64,000 bases of DNA, from assembly GCA_000004985.1 (NCBI GenBank), contig GG738849.1; one strand, given 5' to 3'. Every line of letters starts with the position of its first letter. Position 1 is the first letter of the stretch. Below are positions 1 through 63,718 of this stretch, piece after piece. Source of the DNA: Naegleria gruberi (taxonomy: Eukaryota). The notes under the pieces are model-generated. The model was not told the origin of the DNA and searched no databases. It worked only from the letters and a program-made list of their open reading frames with translations. The translations under genes were made by a program, and so were the position numbers.

Positions 1-824
1 GGCATTGGATTTACTTGAAACAAATGGCATCCAAGTCGACGAAGTGATTTATGTTGTACTTTTGACTGCATGTGCAAACGATGTGTCAATAGAAAAAGGT
101 GAGCATGTTATCAAACTAATAGAATCGTCTGGAATGCTCACAGACCATATTATGTACGGAGCTGTTGTAAACTTTTATGCCAAAATTGGAAATATTCAAA
201 AAGCTCTGTATTTTTTCAATGAATATGATGGCCCTCCTGAAAGTCTTTAATGATGTGGAAAGAGCTGAGAGAGCATTTAACATTTTATTAGAGCTCGATA
301 AGGAGCAAGCAACTCATTATGTTCTAATGTCGCATGTGTACCTTCAAAGTGATCAACCAGAAAAAGCAAAAGAAATAAGGGAATTGATGAAAAAAAATGA
401 GGTACAAAAGACACCTGGCATTACTACAATTGAAATTAATGGCAAAACTTATCATTTTTACTACAATGACGAAAGCCACCCCAAAAAGGAGGAAATATTT
501 CAAGAATTGGACAAGTTATGCCAAGAAATGGAGCTCGCAGGCTATGTTCCAGACACGAGATGGGTTACTAAAACGGATGCCAATGATGAAGAAACAAAGA
601 AACATTTACTTTCAAGGCATTCTGAAAAAATTGCATTATCATTTGCTTTCATTTCCCTTCCACCTGGATCACCAATAACAATACGAAATAATCTGAGAAT
701 GTGTGGAGATTGTCACACAGCAACAAAGTTTATATCAAAAATCAGGAAGTGTGAAATTACGGTTAGAGATGCCAGTAGATATCATCACTTTAAGGATGGA
801 AAGTGCAGCTGTGGAGACTTTTAA
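1..824 (+). CDS. DYW-type pentatricopeptide repeat (PPR) RNA-editing factor, 5'-partial at the window edge. A PPR repeat is followed by E1/E2 and a DYW cytidine-deaminase-like domain with the HSEK..CGDCH..HHF..CSCGDF signature. There is an apparent 1-nt frameshift near 245-248.
   Basis: ORF 5-250 has a PPR motif (YGAVVNFYAKIGNIQKALYFFNEYDGPPES). ORF 177-824 has the E-domain consensus (ALLKVFNDVERAERAFNILLELD, HYVLMSHVY, TPGITTIEINGKTYHFYYNDESHP) and the DYW domain (HSEKIALSFAFI, CGDCH, RYHHFKDGKCSCGDF). The two frames overlap at 171-250. Removing one T from the T-run at about 246-248 gives a continuous PPESLNDVERAERAF. Confidence 0.8.
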
Positions 825-858: not shown

Positions 859-1824
859 CTAATACATTTTCGGAACGTTTATTGTTGGATAAGCACCAGA
901 GTTTGGATTTGGTACATAATTTGGATTAAAGTCATCTCTTCTCTTTCCAACTAATCCCAATTTCTTAATGGCACTATATTGTTCAGGAATTTCCATTAGG
1001 GCATGTAATGCAAAGGTGGCATCCACTGATTTTTTAGCCTCTCTGGCCTTCTTGGCAACTTCATCCCAATGGACAAATTGGAAATTATCAAACTTTCTCT
1101 GAGGTAACTCATCATCATAATTATGCATCAAATCAAAAGGTCCATCTCCTAAACCAACCATGACAATACTGATTGGATAATTGCTTGCCCTAACGATTGC
1201 TTCTTCAGTTTCCTTTTCATTGACAACCAAACCATCTGCCAAAATAATTAAAATATGATATTGACCTCTACCAGATTGCATGACAGTTTCAATTGCCTTT
1301 TCAATTACAGGTGCAAAGTTAGTTGGACCACTCAACTTGATGTGTGGCGTTATTCTTCTGTATTCATGTAAAACTTCTTCAAATCCTCTACATGGTCTGT
1401 ATTCACCATTAGGACAAAATGGGAAACAACCAAAATCACGACACTTATCATCTCCAAATCCTAAAACATCTATCAACTTGTCGTCATCAAACTTTTCCAA
1501 TGTTCTACCAATTATTGAGATGACTTTTTCATATGGATTTACAATATCACCAACCGGATCAATATAATGAAGACTTCTTCCTCCAAAGGTTTTTCTTCCT
1601 TGTTCTTCATTCGATTTTGTATAATCAATTCCGATGATCAAATTACATGATTCTAAACCAGTCTTTCTCAGGGCATCTTGCACCTCTTCAATGGAATTAT
1701 AATTATCACCAATAGCAAGTCCCAAGGCCGATTGTGAAGTAGTTTGTTGAGCATTGGCTTTTTTTGTTTTAGAATAAATAGCAATAATAGCCAGTATGAT
1801 CAGTATGATGGTGAATGGATCCAT
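859..1824 (-). CDS. Copine-like vWA-domain protein with an N-terminal transmembrane anchor and no C2 domains.
   Basis: 321-aa ORF with an N-terminal hydrophobic helix (IILIILAIIAIY). The copine/vWA core motifs are present (IIGIDYTKSN, HILIILADG, PISIVMVGLGDGPFDLM, FDNFQFVHWDEV). Confidence 0.75.
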   Translation of the reverse strand: MDPFTIILIILAIIAIYSKTKKANAQQTTSQSALGLAIGDNYNSIEEVQDALRKTGLESCNLIIGIDYTKSNEEQGRKTFGGRSLHYIDPVGDIVNPYEKVISIIGRTLEKFDDDKLIDVLGFGDDKCRDFGCFPFCPNGEYRPCRGFEEVLHEYRRITPHIKLSGPTNFAPVIEKAIETVMQSGRGQYHILIILADGLVVNEKETEEAIVRASNYPISIVMVGLGDGPFDLMHNYDDELPQRKFDNFQFVHWDEVAKKAREAKKSVDATFALHALMEIPEQYSAIKKLGLVGKRRDDFNPNYVPNPNSGAYPTINVPKMY

Positions 1825-7971: not shown

Positions 7972-8037
7972 CGCCCCACGTGGGGCTCGAGCCATTGGAT
8001 TAAAAGTCCAACGCTCTACCGACTGAGCTAGCGGGGC
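7972..8037 (-). tRNA. tRNA-Lys(UUU)-like gene, 66 nt. Acceptor stem, D-arm and anticodon arm are intact, but about 7 nt of the 5' T-stem strand are missing. It is a probable pseudogene or tRNA-derived element.
   Basis: The minus strand reads GCCCCGC TA GCTCAGTCGGTAGAGC G TTGGA CTTTTAA TCCAA TGGC TCGAGCC CCAC GTGGGGC G. The acceptor pairs 7/7 including one G-U. The D-arm is canonical and the anticodon is TTT. Relative to canonical tRNA-Lys (..GGGTCGTGGGTTCGAGCCCCACG..) the TCGTGGG segment is absent. Confidence 0.6.
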
Positions 8038-36931: not shown

Positions 36932-39454
36932 TTAGAAAGTTTGTTGGTGATCTTCTGCAAATATGCCAATTTTTCTCTTTACTCTGTTTAATAGAGCCTC
37001 TTCAATAGAGCTTGTTCCATTGACATAAAGTTCTTCTACCCATAATATTTCATTTACCCAAGGAGAAATAATTTGATTGTCTATAAGATATTCCACAATT
37101 TCCAATATTTCCATCTCTAGTTTTTGATTAATGCTTACTCGGTAAAGAATTTGCAAATGTTGCACCAGTTTTGGAGCTAGTTCAGCCATATTTCTTCTGT
37201 CTATTAAACAAGTGGAAAAGGCGTTAACATATAATTCGTCTAACTTGTCAATATGAGTTGAACCTTGTTTAAAGTTAGTAAAGCATTCTATTGTTTCAAA
37301 CATAGCATTGATTGATTCATTCAAAATTACAAGAGATCTCTCACCACCATTAAGAGCAACATCGTTTCTAATAATCCTATTACATGCCCAAAAAGCTTGC
37401 GACATTTTATCCACGATTATATTAGGAATCCAAAGCATGTCATCTTCAAAATCTTCCATATCAGCAATCTCCTTAATAATTATTGGCAAAATGTAATCAT
37501 AGATAAAATCCTTCTTTCCTCCTTCATTGATAGAATTATTAGTCAACATGTCCATGGAGAGATGAGTGTGTAATATTCCAATTTCACTCAAAGTTCCAAG
37601 CAATGTGAATAGTGAATGATATTGTGTGTATGCAAATGGATCTCCAATCTTAATGAGAATTCGTATTAGATTGGCAAGAAATGAATAGGAGTGTTTGTTG
37701 AAAGCTTCAAGTAGAGCTTTTCTTTCTATCCATCTGCAAATTTCTATCAACACCACCGTAAGTGGCACAATCATTGAATTAAACAGTTCCTGTATGCTGT
37801 AGCTTGACATTTCTTCTGTCTTTTCCTTAATATAGGAAAGAAGTTTCTCACATAGTACATTATCATTAATTAATTGAAATGCGTTTCCGATTAAGAGGAG
37901 GCATTGATTAATATTCTTCTTATGTAGGTTTGTTTTTTCTTCCTCGTTTTCAACTGTTAAATATTCCATCGTTTCATTCACACACACAGTTTCGAATAAA
38001 TTGTTAATCTTGAATTTCAAACCTTCCAAAATTGATTCACTAATTTCTGATTTGCTAATATTCAGACTGTTAGTAATGCCTTTCAACAAGGCACAATAAT
38101 CTGTGATATCATTACTACTCAATTCATGAGATTTAATGATACAATCAAGTAAATCATCAGAATAATAATTAGTTTTTGAAAAGAAAAGACCAAGGGCCTT
38201 CTTGGTGACTAATCTTATATCCCTATTCTCAGAGGAGAGTAATTTCTTACAAATTTGAATAATTGCAGAGACTTGATTCTTAACATTTTGAGTTTCAATC
38301 GAAGATAAATCAATTAGAGAAATACTGTCGAGAGCTGTTATGATAGATCTTTTTGCCAATAAATCTCCACTCTCCAACTCACTCTGTTGTTGCAAAGTGT
38401 CAAATATGAAATCCTTAAAGAGAGCTGCTACGTAAGATTTGTTTTTAAAGGCAGAAGGATCTTGTTTACAATCATAGTTCAATATATTACTAATCATTCG
38501 TAATATTTTGTGTTTGATTACCCAAACAGTCTTTCCATAATTATTTCTAATTCTTGGAAATAAATTTTCAGATATAATGGTAGAATCATCTTTGGTGTTC
38601 TTGATTTGTGCCAAATCATTCTCCATCATATCTAGAATGCATTTTGCAAAATTAATTGACAAGTGAAACAATTTTCCAAGTAATGTGAATAATTTTTTTG
38701 TAACATTTGTCTTCTTCTTTGTAGAACTAGCCTCAGCAAAGTTATAGAGACAAAAAATGAAATATCGTGCCAGTAAAAGACCGAAAGCCTGATTTTTGTA
38801 ATAGTTTTTAGCCTTAAGTTCATAATCATCCTCTGTAGGTGTTGTTATATATTCAATAAATTGATTCCAATAATAAAAGAGATCGGTCAATAACCAACTA
38901 TTTGCTCCTGATAAATAACTTTCAGGATTTTCTTTCAACAATTGATTCTTTCTTTCCAAAAAGTAATTAGAAACCGTTAACAATAGAAAACATGGTGGAA
39001 ATTCAGTAAATCCGACATGTGAAATTGGTTTTCTACACTTTAAAACTTCAGCATGCACCTTTACAATAAAATGTAAAACAACTTTTTGCCAATTCTCCAA
39101 ATTATCAATTCCACATTCGAATGGTTCCACTTCGGCACCTTTCCTCACCTCTTGATAAATATGGTTTGCACAACGAAAGAATTGGGGTATAATTCTCTCC
39201 TCTGCATAATCCATAAATTGACAAAACTCTCTCACTTCACAATTCATCCAATTACACGAAATGGCTGTGGAAAGGTAGTAATAAATTAGAATAATCATTT
39301 TCATGCAAGCTTGTTGCTCAGTATCCGAATCATATACTTCCGAATATACTTTCAACTCATTTTCATCACACAACTTTCCTANNNNNNNNNNNNNNNNNNN
39401 NNNNNNNNNNNNNNNNNNNNNNNNNNNNNNNAAACACGATTTGTTACAAGACAA
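36932..39454 (-). CDS. Large hypothetical helical-repeat (HEAT/ARM-like) protein. The CDS is interrupted by the assembly gap near its 5' end, and the true N-terminus lies beyond 39454.
   Basis: 840-aa ORF with alpha-helical repeat composition. The X-run in the translation coincides with the N-run 39382-39431. Confidence 0.5.
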   Translation of the reverse strand: MSCNKSCXXXXXXXXXXXXXXXXXXGKLCDENELKVYSEVYDSDTEQQACMKMIILIYYYLSTAISCNWMNCEVREFCQFMDYAEERIIPQFFRCANHIYQEVRKGAEVEPFECGIDNLENWQKVVLHFIVKVHAEVLKCRKPISHVGFTEFPPCFLLLTVSNYFLERKNQLLKENPESYLSGANSWLLTDLFYYWNQFIEYITTPTEDDYELKAKNYYKNQAFGLLLARYFIFCLYNFAEASSTKKKTNVTKKLFTLLGKLFHLSINFAKCILDMMENDLAQIKNTKDDSTIISENLFPRIRNNYGKTVWVIKHKILRMISNILNYDCKQDPSAFKNKSYVAALFKDFIFDTLQQQSELESGDLLAKRSIITALDSISLIDLSSIETQNVKNQVSAIIQICKKLLSSENRDIRLVTKKALGLFFSKTNYYSDDLLDCIIKSHELSSNDITDYCALLKGITNSLNISKSEISESILEGLKFKINNLFETVCVNETMEYLTVENEEEKTNLHKKNINQCLLLIGNAFQLINDNVLCEKLLSYIKEKTEEMSSYSIQELFNSMIVPLTVVLIEICRWIERKALLEAFNKHSYSFLANLIRILIKIGDPFAYTQYHSLFTLLGTLSEIGILHTHLSMDMLTNNSINEGGKKDFIYDYILPIIIKEIADMEDFEDDMLWIPNIIVDKMSQAFWACNRIIRNDVALNGGERSLVILNESINAMFETIECFTNFKQGSTHIDKLDELYVNAFSTCLIDRRNMAELAPKLVQHLQILYRVSINQKLEMEILEIVEYLIDNQIISPWVNEILWVEELYVNGTSSIEEALLNRVKRKIGIFAEDHQQTF
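39382..39431. other. Assembly gap (50 N).
   Basis: Run of n characters. Confidence 0.95.
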
Positions 39455-39599: not shown

Positions 39600-42500
39600 T
39601 TATTTGGATAGGAGAGTTTCACAAATGTCTTGGTCAATTTGGTTATATTTCAACAAGACTTCTAAAATGAGAATAATCTTTTTTAGGGAAGGTCTTTGGT
39701 TAGGATTCAGTCTTGTCATTTGTTGGAGGAGACCAATTAAGAGTTGTTCATTTTGATGTGAACAGTAGTAAAAGGATTTTTTTAACTTTTCCATATTTGG
39801 TGTAGTATTTAAGGAAGTTTCATTGGATGCATTGAATGGAGTTGAGGAGGAAGGGTTGATTCTTTCAGAGCTTGGAGGAGAAGCCAAGAGAGAGGAAGCA
39901 GACATTGGAGAACTTGTTTCAGAGCTTGAAATTTTGACGAAACCATCCGAATGGTGATTAATGGAAGAATTGTTGGAAGGATTATGAAGTCTTGGAGAGA
40001 TTAAGTGAGGAATAGCTTCACTCTTCAATAAACTCATGTGAATTTTGGAAGCCATGATTTGATGAGTGAGTTTTTCATCTCTTGAGATTGCTTCCTCAAT
40101 CGAAACATATTCGAAATTTGTTGCATTGGTTTGAATAGTTGCACTTTCTAAATTATTTCCAACAGTAGTATTAGAAGAAGATGCAATACCATCTGTTTGT
40201 CCAGTACCATTCAGCAATTCTTGATGGTCAACTTCCTTCTTAATTATTACAGTTGTAGTTGAGGTTGGAGACGAAACTGTTGAATTATCTGAACTTTCAC
40301 CATGTTGATGCAAATTAGACAACCTAATAAATGATTCCTTTGTAATGAGTTGATAAAAAACACATCCCAATCTGAAAATATCATCCTTCTCATCCAAATA
40401 TCTTTCAATATCACCATCAAAATTTAACTTTTCTTGATTATTGACATTGGATGACATTATTTCACGCAATACCATTTGTTTTCTTAAAGTAGAATGATTA
40501 GTACTTGAAGTGGTTGATGTTGGTGTTGTAGATCTAATAGTAGACCATTCATTTGAGTGTTGCTTGTTGTGATATTGTTCCATCACTTGTCTGTTTTTAA
40601 ATTGGACAGTTCCATCAAGGATTGAAAAATCCCAAGGTTTAAACCAATCAGTGAGTTTCACATTGAGATTTGACTTGTGTTGATCACCCAATAATGTATC
40701 ATTCTCATCAAATGCCTTAATAATTACTGATTTCAATTCTTGTTGCTTTGCTTCTGACAAACTATTCGAAACACTATTATCAAACAATAACAAATCAGCC
40801 TTAAAATCACTACCAGCAGGTGTTACACACGACTGAGTCGATCTAAAACTTGAATCTTTCTCTTCATTATAATTCATCAAAATCTTTTCCAATTTCAATG
40901 AAGGAAAAACAATCGAATTCTGATGCAAATGTGAAAGACCTTTCGTTGACTGCAAACAAACATCAATCAACTCTAAATAATTCATGAATCGATGATTTCT
41001 AATCATAAATTCAACTCTCTTCTCCAAATTGGAACCATTCATATAGGGAAGTTCAATGAAAATTTCAAATCGTTCAGATCTACATCTTCTAATGGTATAA
41101 TCAGAGAATGTCATGACATTTGGATGTTTTGGAAATAGTATCATGGACTCGACACCTTTACCAACTTCTGTTAAATCTGATTTTGTGAAATTTGTCAAAT
41201 GTTTCAAAGCACAGAGTGAGCTTGTCTTGACTTTGACAGATTTGTAAATTTTAGAGTGGTGATTGGAGAAAATTCTCTTCAGAATTAGATATCTATTACC
41301 AAGTACATGAGGTCTAATTCTTCTCTCAAAACCATAACAGTCAATTGGGGAAGTGACATGTTGGAGAAGGAATTTCATTAACATTTCAACTTCATTTCCT
41401 CTCTTGAGATGAATCTTCTTCTCCATCCAATCTACCATTCTAATTACTTGATCTTCAACCAATTCTTCCAAACTTGCATATTCTTTCACTTTCTTTTTCA
41501 CACTTTCGAATAAATTCTTCAAATTTAAAATGAAATTCCATTCATCCTCCAAAGAAACCATAAAAGTTCCATCATATAACTGTTGATTCTGTTCAGAATA
41601 TAATTGTTTAGCAAATGTAGCAATGAAAATTGCAAAAATCAATCTCTCATTAATTTCCCTCTGATAATTTTCATCACTTTTTGTAAACATCATTTGGAGA
41701 ATATTCTTCTTTTTGAGTGGAATGTCAAATAGGAAGGAGAGAATTTGTTGTTCATTGTGTGGAGTTACTTTTTGTTTGAGTTTGAGTTTGACATTTCTAA
41801 AATCAAATCTTTTCAAACAAATTTCAATAACTGGACAAGTGACTTGATAAGATTCAAAATGATCGACTAGGAATTCAACTTGTGCAAGTTCCCTTTCATC
41901 ATTAATTGGTGTATTCAAACAATAACCATGAACATTCAAATTAGTAAAAAGTGCCTTGACAGAATTCATCACAATATTATACGAATCTTGATTTGGTGGA
42001 ATGTAATTTTCAATTATGACTGCTTGCTCACCACTCTTCTCAGATCCACTCCAACTACTCCCCAATTGACCTGTCAAATATTGTGCATTAGTCAATTGTT
42101 GTGGTTTCACTGCACTATACCTCAAATTACCTCCTTGAACAATTTCTCTCAACAAGTCATGAAAAATTTCCTTAACTTTTTGTTGAATTAAACTTTTTGG
42201 TTCATCACTATTCATTTCAATGAATGGAACGTAATAGTAGAGTGATTTTTTTAATCCTTCACGTTTGGAAACTTGTCTTTCTTTACCATTTTGAGAAGTT
42301 ACAAAGATGGAGGAGGATGAGGAATTGGATCGAAGTGAGGTTGAGTGATGTTTGTTGTTGGTTGTGTTTGATAGGATGGTTGTTGAATTATTGTTATTAT
42401 TCCAGTATTTGGTGGCACTGGAAAGTGAAACAATTGAGGCTTTTCTTGAGGAATCGGATAGATCGGCATTGTCTTGCATCAATTGACCACTTGTACTTGT

Positions 42501-43886
42501 TGAACTCTTGAGATTCATTAAACTTGTAGCTGTCAATGGAGATGGTTGATTAGTGATTGGTGTTGTGGTTGAATTCTGTTGTTGTTGTAATAGGAGACTT
42601 GTTGTGGAAGGTGGTGAACCAGCATTACTCTTATTACTATACTCAATTCCAACAAGAACCATTGAAATGGTACCTCCCTCTTTAGCTCTATAAAGCTTTT
42701 CGTATAGAATGTCAACTTGTTGGAAACTTCTACGACTTGCAACATTGTAAACTATGAGAAAACCATCACATTCTTTGAGACATTGATCCATCATGTTGAC
42801 AAATTGCTCATAGATGTCATAAAAGAAGAGTTCTAATTGGTAGGGTTTTCCACCAAAATCGAATTGTTTCTTCATAACGGTTTCGTCAGAGTTGGTTGAC
42901 CTTTTGACTTCTTCTTGCAAGAATTCAGCTGCAATGAGAGAATCTGATAAATCTTCACCTAGAATGGCGATTTTGTAAACTGGATATTGTTCAGCTGTTT
43001 TGGTGACTTCTACAATAGCAGAAGATGGTCGAGGAGATTCTTCTGGTTCAGTTTTGGTTTCTCCCTCATCATTCTTATAGAAACCAAACCATTTCTGGTA
43101 GAAACTCAATTCCTTCTTAATTTCCAACTTGATTGGCTCTTCATGAGTTGTGGCTGTTTCTTCAATTTTCACTTCACTTTCGTTCGTAGGATTACTATTA
43201 GAAACCAGCATTGGAGGTGGTGGAGGCTGTTGAACATTCGAATCTTGATAAACATCTTCCAGTTTAATCAAATCATCATCTCTAGAACTAATTGCATGTC
43301 TTCTAAGATCTTCTCCATCTTGTTCTTGCTCATCTTCACTTTCATCTTCGACATTATTCTTTGATTGAATGTTAATATTGGCAGATGTAGTATTACTTGT
43401 CAATGGTTTACCAAAATCAATAATATCCTCATCATCAATCTTGAATTTAGTCAATTGAACACTGTCTCTACTCGTTTTAGTTTCTAGTGTTGCAGTTGAC
43501 TTGTTACCTTGTTTCTTATTCTTTTTCTTTTGAAAAGTTGTTGCACCACCAGCACCACTAACCACATCAGTTGAACTATTAGCTTTATGAATATATCGAG
43601 AGAGAAAGTTATTCTTCTTTGATTTCAATTCCTTCTCAAATTGAGATGTATCATGAACAGTTGGAGAACTTTCCATTGGAAGAGTTTTACGAGTCAATTG
43701 TTTGCCTGAATTGTTCTGCAGCTGTTGATCATCCTCTTCTTCTTCTTCAGAGGAGTAGGCTGAATTTGAAGATGAAGTCTCTTCCTGTTCATCACCAGAT
43801 TCAATGAGAATGATTTCTTCCTCAGCAAGTATTGAAGACATTTTTTCTTTTGAATATATCTGAATTGGAAAATCTTTCAACAACAT
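39600..43886 (-). CDS. Giant 1428-aa protein with an acidic N-terminus, a degenerate Ras-like small-GTPase domain (no intact P-loop), and a C-terminal protein-kinase-like domain whose catalytic motifs appear degenerate (candidate pseudokinase).
   Basis: Ras-like fold segment YKIAILGEDLSDSLIAAEF..KPYQLELFFYDI..DGFLIVYNVASRRSF..MVLVGIEYS lacks GxxxxGK[ST]. The kinase-like region (YLILKRIF..IYKSVKVK..CALKHL, then LSHLHQNSIVFPSLKLEKILMNY, DFKADLLLFD) lacks a clean HRDxxxxN/DFG. Confidence 0.6.
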   Translation of the reverse strand: MLLKDFPIQIYSKEKMSSILAEEEIILIESGDEQEETSSSNSAYSSEEEEEDDQQLQNNSGKQLTRKTLPMESSPTVHDTSQFEKELKSKKNNFLSRYIHKANSSTDVVSGAGGATTFQKKKNKKQGNKSTATLETKTSRDSVQLTKFKIDDEDIIDFGKPLTSNTTSANINIQSKNNVEDESEDEQEQDGEDLRRHAISSRDDDLIKLEDVYQDSNVQQPPPPPMLVSNSNPTNESEVKIEETATTHEEPIKLEIKKELSFYQKWFGFYKNDEGETKTEPEESPRPSSAIVEVTKTAEQYPVYKIAILGEDLSDSLIAAEFLQEEVKRSTNSDETVMKKQFDFGGKPYQLELFFYDIYEQFVNMMDQCLKECDGFLIVYNVASRRSFQQVDILYEKLYRAKEGGTISMVLVGIEYSNKSNAGSPPSTTSLLLQQQQNSTTTPITNQPSPLTATSLMNLKSSTSTSGQLMQDNADLSDSSRKASIVSLSSATKYWNNNNNSTTILSNTTNNKHHSTSLRSNSSSSSIFVTSQNGKERQVSKREGLKKSLYYYVPFIEMNSDEPKSLIQQKVKEIFHDLLREIVQGGNLRYSAVKPQQLTNAQYLTGQLGSSWSGSEKSGEQAVIIENYIPPNQDSYNIVMNSVKALFTNLNVHGYCLNTPINDERELAQVEFLVDHFESYQVTCPVIEICLKRFDFRNVKLKLKQKVTPHNEQQILSFLFDIPLKKKNILQMMFTKSDENYQREINERLIFAIFIATFAKQLYSEQNQQLYDGTFMVSLEDEWNFILNLKNLFESVKKKVKEYASLEELVEDQVIRMVDWMEKKIHLKRGNEVEMLMKFLLQHVTSPIDCYGFERRIRPHVLGNRYLILKRIFSNHHSKIYKSVKVKTSSLCALKHLTNFTKSDLTEVGKGVESMILFPKHPNVMTFSDYTIRRCRSERFEIFIELPYMNGSNLEKRVEFMIRNHRFMNYLELIDVCLQSTKGLSHLHQNSIVFPSLKLEKILMNYNEEKDSSFRSTQSCVTPAGSDFKADLLLFDNSVSNSLSEAKQQELKSVIIKAFDENDTLLGDQHKSNLNVKLTDWFKPWDFSILDGTVQFKNRQVMEQYHNKQHSNEWSTIRSTTPTSTTSSTNHSTLRKQMVLREIMSSNVNNQEKLNFDGDIERYLDEKDDIFRLGCVFYQLITKESFIRLSNLHQHGESSDNSTVSSPTSTTTVIIKKEVDHQELLNGTGQTDGIASSSNTTVGNNLESATIQTNATNFEYVSIEEAISRDEKLTHQIMASKIHMSLLKSEAIPHLISPRLHNPSNNSSINHHSDGFVKISSSETSSPMSASSLLASPPSSERINPSSSTPFNASNETSLNTTPNMEKLKKSFYYCSHQNEQLLIGLLQQMTRLNPNQRPSLKKIILILEVLLKYNQIDQDICETLLSK

Positions 43887-50716: not shown

Positions 50717-52627
50717 TTAATGGAATTTTACATATCTTTCGTGGAGCATTGAGGTAATCTTTTGGAATTTTGCAAACTCTCCATATTCTTCAGAGTCAAT
50801 ATCATTGATTTGTTGCTTGTGAACAACACCAAACTTTTTCTTTACATTTTGAAAGACATCTCTCACCATTGGAATGAGATATTTTTGTTGTGTAATGTCG
50901 ACAAACTTTCTATCAATCAAGGCACAAAACACAACAAGTGGAGTCATCTCATCACTAGTTCTGCATGATTCAAAGTAAAGTTTGATAAGTCCCTCAGTAA
51001 TTGCCAATCTCTTCTCGAGAGCATCCTTCATTACTGTGGATGCTCCTTTGACATCTTGTTGGTGTCTGTAGGCCATCAATAATTTCCAATGAATTTTGAT
51101 ATTGTTAATTTTGAAAAGATTAAGTGATCTCATTCTAGAAAGAATCACCCAAGCCTCTTTCATATTACCAACTCTACAGTAGGCATCAATGAGATCTTCC
51201 ATCATCATGGAGGTTGGTTTCAGTTTCTCCTTAGTTACAGCATAATCATAGATAGTCAACATTGTGTCAATATCAACCTCGTAAGTGTAGTTTGGTGGAA
51301 TGAAGGAACGAATCAAATGTTGGTAAATACTGGTCAGTTCCAAATTCAATCCATGCTTGAACTCGAGAGCATTCTCTGTTGGGGCGACATTGTCAAGACT
51401 TCCCACCACTTTTGCACTGGAATTATCCAAAAAGAATGCAGAGCTACTTCTGTAATCTTTGAACTTTCCTCTATTCAACAATAACCTGTGGAAAAGAGCT
51501 TTTGCTGCCTGTGGATTATAATAAGATCCAGATAGAAATAGTGATATAGAATCATAACATTTCAAATAGAAGAGGCCATATTCGTTTTCCATCAAATCCA
51601 AAGTTTCCATCATGACATTGATATTTCTAGATCCATGAATAACAAATCTAAATGTATCTTCATCAGGCTCATACCCAGAATCAATCATTATAGAAAAGTA
51701 TTTTGAAAGGAGTTCATTTTCCTGGAGAGGGGTTGTCATTGAGTTTGTTGCATCTCTCGACATGTTATCAGTACCAATTAATGCCAAAGCAGAAAGAAAA
51801 TGATTCCAATATGATGTATCCAGCTCAATACAATCATTCCACTGTGTAATTGCTTTTCTATAGTATTGAATGGCCTTGTCAACCTGATTGTCAACTCTGG
51901 ATGCATCGGTAAGGAAAATCAATGTTGTTAAATTAGGATTGATTCCATTCTTTTCCATAAATCTTTCCATTTCCCAAATCTGCTCCGTTGCTCGCAATCT
52001 CAAATAAATATCCATAAACATGTTAAATAAATGTACATCAAAAGCTAATACGTCTGGTCCAATATTATTAGAAATGTCATTTACAAATATAGCTTCCTTT
52101 TTGGCATCTCTGAACATGATGTCAACCTTTCGGAGAAGGGTTTCTCTATCTTGGAGAATTATTTTTCTTTCATTTGGATTATTTAAATAGTGCTGACTTC
52201 CCTGTAGTGCTTGTTTAATATTTGAAGATGATAATATTGTTCTATCATTTTTCAAGTAGCTTTGTTGACAATTTACTAATTTTCTTCTTATCAATGAAAC
52301 TTCATTTCTAATATTAACATTATTCCATCTTTGTGAAAAATTATTTAATAAAAGTCCAATATTTTGTTCATGTTTTGCCTTTAAATTATTACTCTCTTGA
52401 AAATGTTTTAAATTCTTCCTCATAAAATCAATATTGGTCAAGTATTTTCTCTGAATGGTGCTACTCTCAATGACATGATCTTGATGAAAAGCTGATGAAT
52501 AATTTCTTCTTTTATTCCCTTCCGAAGATTTTGAGAATTTTAAAACACCACAATGACCCAATAATAATTGTTTCCTAGTTGTTGATGATGTTCCGAGTAG
52601 GAATGAAACTTTGTTTGTGTTGTTCAT
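50717..52627 (-). CDS. Hypothetical helical-repeat protein with PPR-like repeats.
   Basis: 636-aa ORF with degenerate 35-aa helical repeats (DLIDAYCRVGNMKEAWVILSRMRS; FNMFMDIYLRLRATEQIWEMERFMEKNGINPN). Confidence 0.5.
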   Translation of the reverse strand: MNNTNKVSFLLGTSSTTRKQLLLGHCGVLKFSKSSEGNKRRNYSSAFHQDHVIESSTIQRKYLTNIDFMRKNLKHFQESNNLKAKHEQNIGLLLNNFSQRWNNVNIRNEVSLIRRKLVNCQQSYLKNDRTILSSSNIKQALQGSQHYLNNPNERKIILQDRETLLRKVDIMFRDAKKEAIFVNDISNNIGPDVLAFDVHLFNMFMDIYLRLRATEQIWEMERFMEKNGINPNLTTLIFLTDASRVDNQVDKAIQYYRKAITQWNDCIELDTSYWNHFLSALALIGTDNMSRDATNSMTTPLQENELLSKYFSIMIDSGYEPDEDTFRFVIHGSRNINVMMETLDLMENEYGLFYLKCYDSISLFLSGSYYNPQAAKALFHRLLLNRGKFKDYRSSSAFFLDNSSAKVVGSLDNVAPTENALEFKHGLNLELTSIYQHLIRSFIPPNYTYEVDIDTMLTIYDYAVTKEKLKPTSMMMEDLIDAYCRVGNMKEAWVILSRMRSLNLFKINNIKIHWKLLMAYRHQQDVKGASTVMKDALEKRLAITEGLIKLYFESCRTSDEMTPLVVFCALIDRKFVDITQQKYLIPMVRDVFQNVKKKFGVVHKQQINDIDSEEYGEFAKFQKITSMLHERYVKFH

Positions 52628-57905: not shown

Positions 57906-60900
57906 TTGATGATTGATCCATCTCAAAATTCAGAGTTAGAAACCTCTTTTAATTTACTTGATCAAGAAGAAAAGGAATTAATTGAACCTCATTATCACTT
58001 TATCCAAAGATCATCAGATTGGATTGAATTAATTCATAACAAAAAACCTCTCAACAATATGCCTCATCGGAACATGTATAATGACACTCCAAGTGATACC
58101 AGCTCAAATAATATAACTCCAAGTAATGCCAATAATGATGATTCACCAGACGTTACACCACTTCATATTTATCTAACCACCCACAAACATGGTCACCACA
58201 TGATTCATGCAAAGAAGGATCAACCATTTGCTCCATCCTTTTTAAATGATGCTGGCTATGAGAGTGGCAGTTCCTCAAATGACGATGATACTGCTCCATC
58301 GAGTGCCTGCGATGAAGTCACTCCAGCCATAACTACTCCTGTTCACTTTCTAACAGAACAACATCATCCCTATTCACCTACCACAATTAACAAATCTTCC
58401 TCAACTAAAGAGTTTCCAACAAGTCACAATCCAGATAATGTACAAAAGTAAGTTTTCCCTTTTTGTTCAATGGAACTAAATTTTCTTGTGATTTGATCAT
58501 TATTTGAAATTTAGAAAAAGGTCTCGAGTTGCTTCTTTACCAGTTACAAATCAACAAGAGAAACTTGTCACAAATAATAATAGCAAAGCAAATCATCCTA
58601 CTATTACTACCAACGATAATAATACTCCTTCTACCACCTCTACCACTTCTCAAACACCTCCAACAAATATTAATAATCCAACTGCTGGTATTCATCATAT
58701 TCAAAGCCAGCCAAACATGCTTTCCAATCAACCAATATCTCTTCTTTCTCAATCATTATTAAAACAAAGTGATGAACATGACTTTTATATGGTCAACGAG
58801 GAAGAAGTTACAAGTGCTTCTGCACTTATTGGAAAACAAAAATATTATAGCGAGGTTAATTTACCAAGTATGGACGTTTCTCCTCTCAAATCGAATGGTC
58901 AATCAATGAAAAAACCAATCATCAAACATAATATTGGAAAACATCACCCAGAAGGAACAGAATCTTGGCTTTTACCAGGGGAATGTGTTCTTAATCATAT
59001 TAAAAAGGTTGGAGTCGTTAAAAATCTCCCAATTACATACTTTCCTCCAACTCATTCCAACCCACAAGCAATTTCATCTCAAGGACCTTTTATTGAGCAA
59101 CCAAAACAAGCTTCTGGAGAATTTTTAACAACAGCAGAGGAATTATTGAATGATTTTAATGTTTATGACTTATTGAATACAGTAGGCGGATCTAGCTCAA
59201 ATTATGGAAGTGCTGGAAGTACTATTAGCACTAATGGTAATGCTACTTCCACTAATGTTGGTGATCAATCTGATACTGAGCCTACTCTTGTTATTGGCGA
59301 GTTATATATTACAAATTATCAAATTAGATTCCAAGTAAGTTTCTCAATTTTTTTTAGTTATTTTAACAATTAAATAGTGCGTTGCTAAACCATCTCTAGT
59401 TCTATCAACTCCAACATCTTGTATTCTTAGAATGGCTCCAAAATATCCACAATCAGAGACAAATACCTACAGCAACTATTACAGTCAATATATTTCATCA
59501 AATGCAAATAATGGACCTACCACTGATAACAAGTTTAATAGTCTTGGATATATTAGTATTAAGAGCAAAGATTTGCAGGTTTTGAAATTTTTATTCTTTA
59601 GAGATTCTTCCTATACAATTGACAAAGTTATGGAGGCCCTTAAAGCTGCTACCTCAAAGAGAGTGTTTGCATTTGCATTCCGTAAACATATTTCCTCCTA
59701 TCCAATTCAAATATATTCTCAGGAGGATATTGAAAAGGGATGGAAGGTTTACAAGATGAAAAGAGAATTTAAAAGACAAGGCCTTTTCACAAGACACCAA
59801 AATAATCCAGCTTTTTCTTGGCGTATTAGTTCTATTAACTCAAAATTCAAAGTTTGTGACACTTATCCAGAACATTTTATTGTTCCTAAAGATGTTTCAG
59901 ATGAAATGCTTGCAGCTTCAGCAGCTTTTAGAAGTAAAGGAAGAATTCCAGTTCTTTCCTGGATTCATCCTCATAAGAATATTTGCATTGTAAGATCGAG
60001 TCAACCTATGGTAGGTATCACAAGAGCAAGATGTAAAGAAGATGAAGAGTTAGTTGATGCCATCAGAAGAGCATCTGGATCAGAGAGACTTCAGATTATT
60101 GACTGTAGACCAAAGGCAAACGCTTGGGCCAATACAGTTATGGGAAAGGGTTATGAAAATATTGCATACTATACTAACTGTTCAATAGAGTTCATGAATA
60201 TTGAAAATATTCATGCCATGACTAACAGTCTTAATTTGCTAAAGAAATTAATTCAAAATAAGCAAAATAACGATCAATATTGGCTATCTTCTTTTGAGGC
60301 AACAGGATGGTTAAAACATACCAAGTTAATCATGCAAGCAGCTTCAAAGGTTGTAACTTATATTGAAAGATTTGATACATCAGTACTTGTTCACTGTAGT
60401 GATGGATGGGATCGTACCGCACAAATCTGCGCACTTGCAGAGCTTTTATTAGACCCTTATTACAGAACTATTAAGGGATTTGAAATTCTAATTGAGAGAG
60501 AGTGGGTTTCTTTTGGTCACAAGTTTCTAGATCGTGTAGGACATGGATGTGTTGGAAAAACTAATTCAGCCTCTGATGAAATTTCTCCTGTTTTTTTACA
60601 ATTTATTGATTGTGTTTGGCAAATTTGGCAACAATATCCTTCACATTTCGAGTTTAATGAGGCGTTCCTCTTCTTAATATTGGACAGTTTATATTCTTGT
60701 CGTTTTGGAAACTTTTTATTGAATTGTGCTAAACAACAGCTCGATGAAAATATTACAAAGGATACTATTTCGGTTTGGACAGAAGTAATGACAAACCCTT
60801 CTCTGTATTATAACGATGTTTATAACCCAAAGAATAGCGAATATTCAACATTAATTGTAAATACCGACATTGACACACTCTCCACACACTTTTGGATAAG

Positions 60901-61240
60901 CTACTTTTATCGATACAAGAAGGGTTCAAAGAACAGATATCACAGAATGCTCAAAAAGGCTATCACCAAGATGAAGAAGGAAAATGCAATTCTCTTGAAT
61001 TCTTTACAAGAGGAACTGTTGACAAGGAAGAGAATTGAGCTAGAGTTGGCCCAATCCAAACAAAAAATCAAATTTCTCGAAGGTCATAATTCATTAACTG
61101 ATGAATCCCACATAAGTGATTCGTATGGAAGTCATCCTGCTTCTGACACTTTAAGTTACAATGGTGAAGATGGAGACACGAAAGTTATTCGCTTCTCAAC
61201 CAGTGTGAAAGAAAATCTGGTGGAAAATTACTTTAAGTAA
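57906..61240 (+). CDS. Myotubularin-family phosphoinositide 3-phosphatase (catalytically competent) with a GRAM domain. It has three exons (57906-58447, 58515-59334, 59378-61240) and introns of 67 and 43 nt.
   Basis: Active site VHCSDGWDRTAQ (C-x5-R) with flanking myotubularin motifs (RIPVLSWIHP, LIEREWVSFGHKF). The GRAM-like LLPGECVLNHIKKVG..GELYITNYQIRFQ is split by the second intron. The N-terminal exon is low-complexity. Confidence 0.85.
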
Positions 61241-61273: not shown

Positions 61274-61400
61274 TTGCTTAATCCTCTTCTTCATCGTCTT
61301 CCTCTTCCTCCTCCTCTTCTTCTTCCTCTTCTTCTTCCTCTTCTTCATCGTCTTCCTCTTCTTCTTCCTCTTCTTCCTCTTCTTCCTCTTCTTCATCTTC
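61274..61400. repeat. GAA/GAG (CTT/CTC on + strand) trinucleotide-rich tract encoding the poly-Glu/Asp tail of eIF2B-epsilon.
   Basis: Repeated cttcttcctcttc units. The +-strand ORF 61274-61501 (poly-Leu-Pro) is its antisense artefact. Confidence 0.7.
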
Positions 61401-63718
61401 GTCTTCAGAACCTTCTTCTAGTTCATTTACATATTCTTTACAAAGAGCCAAAATTGGTTTCATACTTTCTTCATCCAAATGTTCGTCATACCATTCAATA
61501 ACAGTATCATTATCCACAAGTTCTTGTACATTTAAAATCTTCACTATTGTGATAAGTGCTGGACGATACTTAACACCTTCATCGCTAGCTACAAAGTATA
61601 ACAAGTGGGTTAAGAGTAAAACTCTAGATTTCTTTACGCCCAACTTTAAGAAGTGTTCGAGCACTTCCATCCAACATCTCTTTCCATCTTTTCCAGTCAA
61701 TACATCAATAAACTTAGAAAGGAAATCAGTAATGTCATCCTTCTTTGAAATTGTGTCACAATAAACTAAAATACCAGTGAGACAACCAATGGCGATATCT
61801 TCAAAGCTGCTGTCATAGGTAAACTTGAGACCATTAAGTTCAAGTTTTGCATTTTCAATGCTGTGATTTTCGTCTATTGATCTTCTAATACTGGCTCTAA
61901 CCTCATCAAAGAAATCTATTCAGAAGGTAATTATGGATTGAAATATTACTAAATACTTACTAGCATCATCGATATCTTCATGATGTTGTTTGGTTGGCTT
62001 AACAACTTTATCACGCAAAGCCATATCTGATTCAAGTTTATCAGCATCAGCTTGAGAAACTCCCAATCTGTTAATTAATTGATCGCTCAAGAAGGATGGC
62101 AAAACGTGCAAAGAACCCACACCATTAACACCAACATAATTCTTGTTATTGACAACTTTTTTGGCAACCAGGTTGATACTTTTTCTTTCATTTTCAAAGG
62201 CATCATCAAATGAAACTTCTTCTTCTTGATTGGAATATTCATCCTTATCATATTCAATAGTTGTTAATCTGTGATGAGATTTGACAGTAAAATCTGGTCC
62301 AATAACAACATCATATGAAAGTACAGCACCGGTTTCCAATACAGAGTTTGTACACACTTTGACATTATCACAAATGAGAGATGATGTGATCTTTACATTA
62401 TCTTCAATAATAACATTATCCCAAATAAAACTAGCCTCAATTTGAACATTATTACCAATTTGAACATTTTTACCAATTACTGTTGCTTTGATCTTGGTAT
62501 TTTCTCCAATTATTGTTCCACTTCCAATTAAGCAATTTTCTCCAATCACACAACTCTTTGAGAGAGAAATGTTTGATTCATAATAGTTATTTGGTCTTGA
62601 ATATCTGAATGAAGTAGTTCCAGAAAAATTAGAATCTGGAGTGATAGGATACATCCATCTATTGATAAGATCCATGCTAATACTTTCATATGAATTGAGA
62701 TTACAAACTCTACCAGTATATCCATTATCATCAATATAAGCAATGACCTTATGTTCAACAACTTCCGATTTGTGGAGAACATATTTTTGGAATAAATCAT
62801 TTCTTAAATGCTTGTAATCGAATTGATCTTGGAAAACAGGAAGAATTTCAGGAGAACAAATATCAATTCTACAATCCATAACGTCAGAATAAATTCTAAT
62901 ATTATCTTTTGTTTGTTTAAAGTGACGAGTTTCAATCTTAAAATCAAGATTTTCCTTCTTTTCATTTTCATAATGTAATAATTGTTTACTCTTTTCAGAG
63001 ACAGCAATCCAAACAGAATCATTATCTTCATAGAATCTAACAGTATCTGGAGTACATTTACGGAAAATTGTTGTTGCCAAAATGTTGGAATCTAATTTTC
63101 TTTCAGCTCTAAAAAATGTACATTAAAATCAATCGAAATACAATAATAACATACTTGTGTCTTTCCACAATTGGTGCAAGATTAATATTACTAATCACAT
63201 CTCCTTGAATTAAAATAAAATCATTTCTAATTAAATCCATATCAGCAATTCTTCTGAGAGCATCACCAGCAGATTTGGCATCAGTTCCAACAATGGTAGA
63301 TACTTTAATATCAGCACTTGTTGCTTTTGGTGATTGTTTCCACTTGTTTGATGTTCTATTGACCAATTATTTGTATAAATATTTACTATTAATCTCTGGT
63401 ATCACTTACTCCAAATAACGTTTAATTTCATCGGCTCCGTGGCAACAATAAACATAAATTTCTTTTACTCCTGATGAAGCTAACAACTCCAAAATATATT
63501 CGATAATAGGAATGTTATTAACTGGAAGTAAACACTATTAAATAACAACAAGTGTGATTTTAATCAGCACGGATACTATTAAACAACATACTCTTGGTTT
63601 AGATAATGTAATTGGTCTCATTTCCTTTGTGAAAGAGTCGGCCAAAACGACCGCCTTTAAAACATCTTCAGTCTTGACTGGACCACCAGTCTTTTTAGTC
63701 TTTTTCATTTTTTTTAAA
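61278..63718 (-). CDS. EIF2B5: Translation initiation factor eIF2B epsilon subunit (nucleotidyltransferase-like N-terminal region, left-handed beta-helix hexapeptide repeats and a W2 domain with an acidic tail). It is multi-exon, with introns near 61920-61965, 63080-63108 and about 63370-63560. Exact boundaries are not resolved.
   Basis: N-terminal exon MKKTKKTGGPVKTEDVLKAVVLADSFTKEMRPITLSKPR. Hexapeptide-repeat block (IGENCLIGSGTIIGENTKIKATVIGKNVQIGNNVQIEASFIWDNVIIEDNVKI). C-terminal W2 domain (KDGKRCWMEVLEHFLK..LLYFVASDEGV..ILALCKEYVNELEEGSEDEDEEEEE). Confidence 0.8.

Follow-up and report, generated by a model that had tools for sequence, protein, structure and literature searches.

The first 824 nucleotides of a 64,000-nucleotide stretch of Naegleria gruberi DNA (contig GG738849.1 of assembly GCA_000004985.1; the whole stretch is called the window hereafter) contain the 3' part of a gene for a DYW-type PPR protein whose reading frame changes midway. 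This raises the question of whether the locus still encodes an RNA editing factor, has been converted into something else, or has been lost as a gene. With a probability of about two in three, the sequence evidence favors the last of these: the locus would be the 3' end of a pseudogene, namely a recently inactivated and unannotated paralog within the N. gruberi DYW-type PLS-class PPR family. What the sequence comparisons show is which domains are present, which segment is missing, where the frame breaks, that the tail is shortened and that annotation is lacking; that the deletion exists in the genome itself, happened recently and left the locus without function is inferred.

Host genome and annotation of the locus

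Five ORFs of the window are identical, letter for letter, to proteins of N. gruberi NEG-M encoded on one scaffold of 850,158 bp, among them a copine-domain protein (XP_002681840.1, NAEGRDRAFT_30452; 859-1824, minus strand) and ELP3 (XP_002681673.1; 6197-7867, plus strand). An earlier reading of the letters, referred to below as the sequence-only reading, had pointed to a plant-type editing factor in a non-plant genome. The host is indeed not a plant, but the setting is not new, the family having been known in Naegleria since 2010-2011 (PMC4202320). As related in that source, the earliest description of DYW-type PPR genes beyond the land plants came from N. gruberi (Knoop & Rudinger 2010, FEBS Lett 584:4287; via PMC4202320), with 10-11 such genes published since 2010-2011 (PMC4202320; see also PMC3239186), and two C-to-U sites have been verified in its mitochondria (Rudinger et al. 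2011; via PMC4202320). Naegleria is already established as an organism with DYW-type PPR genes and with C-to-U editing, and the sole new element described here is one damaged, unannotated paralog.

The closest relative of the locus, as retrieved by an exhaustive HMMER search, is N. gruberi XP_002679496.1 (NAEGRDRAFT_32040, 799 aa; P0128 below), which is encoded on another scaffold and is 65% identical over E-DYW. It is followed by N. gruberi XP_002673292.1 (NAEGRDRAFT_51788; P0131 below), with 54% identity over the same part, and then by two Willaertia magna proteins. In a collection of about 15 billion sequences, the N. gruberi proteome included, no near-identical protein was found for either half of the locus, and the exact sequence of the 215-aa frame-3 ORF is absent from the protein collection. 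A word-indexed search returned no protein sharing words with the 82-aa N-terminal part; this type of search missed the 65%-identical paralog that the exhaustive search ranked first, and its negatives hold only for near-identical sequences. The DYW locus is unannotated, neither half lying inside any annotated protein. A scan of metagenome contigs yielded no close ortholog, with the best matches being 41-58% identical.

The DYW locus and the copine gene are convergent, with 34 bp between their stop codons (822-859), which illustrates the compactness of the genome. A second PPR gene is found at 50717-52627 on the minus strand, where a 636-aa ORF comprises PPR repeats only (PF13041, E 2.1e-12), has no E or DYW domains and shows weak tblastn similarity to the DYW-type paralogs. 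A tRNA-like sequence (7972-8037, minus strand) scores 43.8 bits against Rfam RF00005 and carries the anticodon loop CUUUUAA, corresponding to Lys(UUU). Its acceptor, D and anticodon arms are normal, the T-arm region counts 12 nt vs. 18 positions of the Rfam model, and the sequence was not called by ARAGORN; it may constitute a degenerate or unusual tRNA-Lys. On the minus strand, two long ORFs (36932-39454 and 39600-43886) have a scaffold gap of 50 N (39382-39431) between or within them; the second of these ORFs (1428 aa) has Ras-like GTPase and protein kinase domains in a ROCO/LRRK-like layout. This exact 1428-aa ORF is absent from the protein collection, and the annotated model probably differs from it, for instance by introns or by the adjacent gap. 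Just downstream of ORF 59432-61240, an imperfect TCT/CTT-rich tandem array (61277-61407) has been detected, its periods being 9, 18 and 30 nt and the 9-mer recurring about 13 times.

Reading frames and the deaminase module

The locus is read in two frames (Table 1). In frame 2, nt 2-247 are open for 82 codons of PPR repeats, for which the Pfam matches are weak; the gene extends 5' past the start of the window, the visible PPR tract being its 3' portion. In frame 3, nt 249-821 encode the second E1 helix, the E2 motif and a complete DYW cytidine-deaminase domain ending in CSCGDF-stop. At the base composition of the window, where stops occur at a frequency of 0.074 per codon, the chance of a stop-free frame of 215 codons is about 7e-8. 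The Pfam match to DYW_deaminase (PF14432) covers model positions 1-92 of 93 with an E of about 2-4e-38, and E_motif (PF20431) and Eplus_motif (PF20430) are matched in frame 3 with 61-62 and 26-27 bits, respectively. Other in-frame ATGs of the frame-3 ORF occur at 219, 225, 228 and 327. The motifs HSEK, CGDCH, HHF, CSC and GDF, which the sequence-only reading had picked out, were all recovered (Table 1), and that reading was right in taking the locus for a DYW-type PPR gene whose zinc and catalytic motifs are intact. The frame switch that it noticed near nt 246-248 is borne out as well, with frame 2 ending at 248-250 and E-DYW lying in frame 3. Both E1 and E2 had been considered intact, which is correct for E2; in the case of E1, only the second helix is certain.

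When compared to the layout of a PLS-class DYW factor, the locus retains a PLS tract, represented by a partial P, an L1-type and an S1-type repeat in nt 2-247, and a DYW domain with PG box, HxE and CxxC, the last two forming the catalytic zinc site. A second, structural zinc site (the His after CxxC, the HxF His and CxC) is present by sequence, its metal binding being predicted. Of the segment that should follow, P2-L2-S2 is missing, E1 helix a is missing or of doubtful presence, and both the second E1 helix and E2 are retained. No continuous frame joins the PPR tract to E-DYW, and the C-terminus ends in D-F-stop and not in Asp-(Tyr/Phe)-Trp.

Table 1. Coordinates of the features at the DYW-type PPR locus (window positions; roles of residues assigned by alignment).
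Feature	Position	Strand	Basis or remark
Frame 2: second helix and linker of a PPR repeat, ALDLLETNGIQVDEV	2-46	+	aligns to P0128 from residue 408
Frame 2: L1-type PPR repeat, IYVVLLTACANDVSIEKGEHVIKLIESSGMLTDH	47-148	+	aligned to the last internal L1 repeat of P0128
Frame 2: S1-type PPR repeat, IMYGAVVNFYAKIGNIQKALYFFNEYDGPPESL	149-247	+	NFYxKxG signature, internal S1 type
Longest frame-3 ORF, 215 aa, from ATG 177	177-824	+	predicted stand-alone E-DYW product if translated alone
Interval of the switch from frame 2 to frame 3, probable deletion junction; includes TTT 246-248	226-248	+	junction scan
TAA stop closing frame 2	248-250	+	context CTT TAA T
Frame 3: second helix of the E1 motif, NDVERAERAFNILLELDKE	249-305	+	Pfam E_motif, alignments
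Frame 3: E2 motif, QATHYVLMSHVYLQSDQPEKAKEIRELMKKNEVQK	306-410	+	Pfam E_motif, 62 bits; aligned to 9kfx
Frame 3: DYW cytidine-deaminase domain	411-821	+	PF14432, 130.6 bits; PDB matches; AlphaFold2/Foldseek
PG box / E+	411-458	+	frame 3
HSEK, putative Zn1 His and catalytic Glu	618-629	+	roles by alignment (PMC7611903)
CGDCH, putative Zn1 Cys and Cys, Zn2 His	702-716 (CGDC 702-713, H 714-716)	+	
HHF, putative Zn2 His	783-791 (HH 783-788)	+	
CSC, putative Zn2 Cys and Cys	804-812	+	
GDF, C-terminal residues	813-821	+	
TAA stop, one codon earlier than that of relatives	822-824	+	alignments

Searches against the PDB have revealed matches of the frame-3 product to the synthetic PPR-DYW 9kfx (E 3.3e-65), the OTP86 DYW domain 7o4e (2.7e-32) and DYW1 7w86 (1.7e-31). 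An AlphaFold2 model of window:219-821 has a mean pLDDT of 92.8, and its predicted fold is similar to the E1-E2-DYW part of 9kfx_A, with a TMq of 0.91 and an rmsd of 1.7 A (Foldseek). In OTP86, the ligands are H892/C920/C923 for Zn1 and H924/H947/C954/C956 for Zn2 (PMC7611903); by alignment with this protein, all putative zinc ligands of both sites and the catalytic Glu are present. Across 147 representative homologs, 29 columns are at least 90% conserved, and the window copy deviates at two of them; two or more deviating columns also occur in 18% of intact homologs, which places the window copy within their range. Its PF14432 score (130.6 bits) falls slightly short of those of four intact relatives, which range from 132 to 154 bits. 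An additional stop or frameshift is found neither in the E-DYW part, with its 192 codons, nor in the 82 PPR codons that are visible. Judged by its residues, the predicted deaminase module is undecayed.

The C-terminal tail had been described as carrying GDF in place of DYW, a substitution that the alignments do not support. The final D-F aligns with the D-Y of DYW and the terminal W is without a counterpart, the tail being D-F-stop and one residue short. The closest paralog ends in GDFF, the window copy having one codon fewer at this point. Among 120 homologs, the last aromatic position is occupied by W in 108 and by F or Y in nine, in one an additional Q follows the W, and two are one residue short. 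In plant factors, a Y-to-F change in the DYW tail is harmless. When the terminal W is mutated, editing is abolished or strongly reduced (PMC6397227; PMC13324415).

Nature of the frame break

Alignments place the two halves of the locus on separate parts of P0128. The best placement of frame 2 is at residues 408-491, the last internal L1-S1 pair (Smith-Waterman score 148), with the four next-best placements scoring 69-106 and none of the five listed falling on the terminal L2-S2. An internal L-S pair is also the best placement in all five heterolobosean relatives. FNEY and PP are identical between the frame-2 part and P0128 408-491, and the pre-junction ends read ...FHAKVGRLERAESVFNEYLSNNPP in the paralog and ...FYAKIGNIQKALYFFNEYDGPP in the window. 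The S repeat of the window bears the S1 signature NFYxKxG and not the S2 signature VDxLxRxG (xxVDxLxRxG) of every relative; S2, so defined, and a full E1 (W..LLgaCR) are present in each of the five heterolobosean relatives inspected. By tblastn, frame 2 (nt 2-238) matches P0128 408-491 (E 1.6e-12) and frame 3 (nt 219-821) matches 596-798, the post-junction match beginning at 596/606, and no match to residues 492-595 was found anywhere in the window. The two segments are 104 residues apart on P0128, yet they overlap by 20 nt on the window.

In comparison with P0128, 104-114 residues are missing, comprising P2-L2-S2 and probably E1 helix a. This corresponds to about 312-342 nt with a length of 3n+2, a size that is an estimate, since P0128 is only 38% identical in the PPR tract. 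Because the loss has a length of 3n+2, one deletion would explain the missing repeats and the change of frame together. A scan of all switch points has placed the best of them at nt 226-247, with summed scores of 828-832 as opposed to at most 814 at or before nt 217, the latter being 14-18 raw units worse under the P0128 mapping. There are no N's near the junction, the sole gap in the window being that at 39382-39431. The residues MNMMALLKVF (219-248, frame 3), with which the AlphaFold2 model starts, bear a weak resemblance to E1 helix a, with no residue identical to the paralog and a pLDDT of 63 for model residues 1-10; they may represent a surviving E1 helix a. A short gap of 9-16 residues where S2 meets E1, the T6 run 211-216 being a possible place of the switch, was considered and overturned, the pre-junction repeat being S1-type and located 104-114 residues upstream of E1. 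An intron was also rejected as the cause of the frame change, since introns add genomic sequence whereas here sequence is missing.

The sequence-only reading had proposed that deleting one T from TTT 246-248 restores the frame, and the reconstructed translation does become continuous (...PPESLNDVERAERAF...); the switch may sit anywhere in nt 226-248. Of the two causes that it offered for the break, recent pseudogenisation is still a live option, but a homopolymer sequencing error is not an adequate one, as it leaves unexplained why the break coincides with the absence of 104-114 residues that are present in the paralog and in other heterolobosean relatives. The predicted T-repaired product is an internal S1 repeat abutting the second half of E1, and not a canonical editing factor. 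In the structure of a PPR-DYW protein with bound RNA, P2, L2, S2 and E1 contribute the residues on which the DYW domain docks, and the C to be edited is positioned four nucleotides 3' to the base that the last PPR repeat recognizes (PMC13324415). Given this docking, even a frame-repaired product would be without its positioning platform.

Probable inactivation, its rivals and known systems

The favored reading can be laid out as a sequence of events. In the ancestral protein, which would have acted in the manner of land-plant editing factors, the PLS repeat tract would have bound mitochondrial mRNA just upstream of the target C, the P2-L2-S2-E1-E2 repeats would have positioned the DYW domain, and this domain would have deaminated C to U with the help of a catalytic Glu and of a Zn ion coordinated by His/Cys/Cys. 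One internal deletion, about 312-342 nt long (3n+2), would then have removed P2-L2-S2 and probably the first E1 helix, so that an internal S1 repeat became fused, out of frame, to the latter half of E1. Ribosomes coming from upstream would halt at TAA 248-250, with E-DYW not being made within the PPR protein, and the copy would also be without the last aromatic residue of the DYW tail. Homology (65% to XP_002679496.1) is here combined with disabling lesions, namely the out-of-frame deletion of 104-114 codons and the shortened tail, which is the pattern of a non-processed pseudogene; signs of relaxed constraint, on the other hand, are not seen, with no extra stops and two of 29 conserved columns deviating. 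If the locus is non-functional, this absence of further decay indicates that the lesion is recent. Taking into account the excess of DYW genes (11) over known editing sites (2, in cox1 and cox3), decay of redundant copies is to be expected. The undecayed E-DYW part reflects either a very young lesion or a module still under selection.

Unlikely, in our estimation, is a split gene, in which the deletion is real and one or both halves are still used, as a PPR-only protein ending at TAA 248-250 and/or as a stand-alone E-DYW or E2-DYW deaminase that starts at ATG 177, 219-228 or 327 and acts in trans, like Arabidopsis DYW1 with CRR4. Such use would be in keeping with the undecayed state of the module, with its confident folding alone in silico (pLDDT 92.8), with the presence of an ATG-initiated 215-aa frame-3 ORF and with the match to the DYW1 structure 7w86 (E 1.7e-31), and trans-acting DYW proteins are established in plants (PMC13324415; bioRxiv 10.64898/2026.09.04.749523). 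Nonetheless, translation of an overlapping ORF located downstream on a eukaryotic mRNA is inefficient, neither a promoter nor a transcript of its own is known for the frame-3 ORF, the tail is without its terminal aromatic residue, neither half has a protein model, and a recent lesion explains the lack of decay equally well. In addition, we know of no E-class partner proteins in Naegleria.

An assembly or sequencing artefact, with an intact gene in the living genome and either a one-base miscall in TTT 246-248 or a larger collapse in the scaffold, appears quite unlikely. The frame does reopen on removal of one T, no other lesion is present, and the draft scaffold contains at least one gap (50 N, 39382-39431). 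A one-base error, however, cannot explain 104-114 missing residues, a repeat collapse is not expected given that the flanks of the junction (the end of S1 and E1 helix b) are mutually dissimilar, and no N's adjoin the junction. Sanger sequencing, by which the NEG-M genome was moreover covered about 8x, seldom miscalls a homopolymer of three bases.

It is very unlikely that the frameshift turned a cis-acting PPR-DYW factor into a two-part one, consisting of a PPR-only RNA binder and a free E2-DYW deaminase acting in trans, produced through an internal ATG or +1 slippage. If true, a division of labour of the CRR4/DYW1 type would have arisen independently, and very recently, beyond the land plants. 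Most improbable of all is a programmed +1 frameshift, in which a slip from CUU to UUU at CUU-UAA-U (nt 245-251) would give one polypeptide (...PPESL-NDVERAERAF...): the site has the form of classic +1 sites, with CUU in the P site and a slowly decoded stop (cf. E. coli prfB, CUU UGA C), CUU is a slippery codon in yeast Ty1, EST3 and ABP140, and the frame-2 stop falls exactly at the start of the frame-3 homology, but the product would still be without P2-L2-S2 and half of E1, leaving nothing obvious for selection to keep, the junction is not pinned to the CUU codon, chance alone predicts a stop soon after an out-of-frame junction (0.074 per codon), and to our knowledge no +1 frameshifting has been reported in Naegleria.

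As an inactivated paralog, the locus adds one damaged, unannotated member to the family, which fits the excess of 11 DYW genes over two sites and suggests birth-and-death turnover within the lineage-specific DYW expansion of N. gruberi. It would be of greater interest only if the E-DYW ORF were proved to be expressed as a trans-acting deaminase; otherwise it matters little beyond annotation.

Among known systems, the land-plant PLS-DYW factors (AtOTP86, PpPPR56/65; structures 7o4e/7o4f and the synthetic 9kfx) share with the window copy the E2-DYW sequence and predicted fold, as well as the PG box, HxE, CxxC and the second zinc site (H, H, CxC). The window copy differs from them in its occurrence in a protist, its identity of 46-52%, the lack of a terminal W, a PPR tract that is not joined in frame and the absence of the P2-L2-S2 docking repeats. 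A layout like that of the two window ORFs, with a PPR tract without deaminase and a separate partial-E/DYW ORF, is found in CRR4 with DYW1 (7w86), and also in DYW2 and MEF8, the partial-E/DYW ORF being of the DYW1 layout. In contrast to CRR4 and DYW1, the window ORFs overlap on one strand through a frameshift, and the downstream ORF is only predicted. We know of no system of an E-class PPR protein acting in trans with a DYW protein in Heterolobosea.

Closer likenesses are found among heterolobosean proteins. Willaertia magna KAL9655006.1 and KAL9657062.1 and the heterolobosean-like metagenome proteins P0001-P0016 are 50-60% identical to the window copy over E-DYW and have the same non-plant PG-box variant, PGI(S/T)T(I/V)E. 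Unlike the window copy, these Willaertia and environmental proteins all possess S2 and E1 in full, and a tail of four residues follows their CxC. The N. gruberi paralogs P0128 and P0131 differ from the window copy in being annotated proteins with P2-L2-S2 and E1 helix a, the latter of which the window copy probably lacks, in having no loss of frame such as that at nt 226-248, and in tails of GDFF or GDNW where the window copy has GDF. They belong to the same genome and have the same PLS repeats, E2 motif and DYW domain as the window copy, and the lineage-specific residues PGITTIE, MSH(V/I)Y and PDTRWVT are common to it and its N. gruberi paralogs, as is, in the case of P0128, the D-F of the tail.
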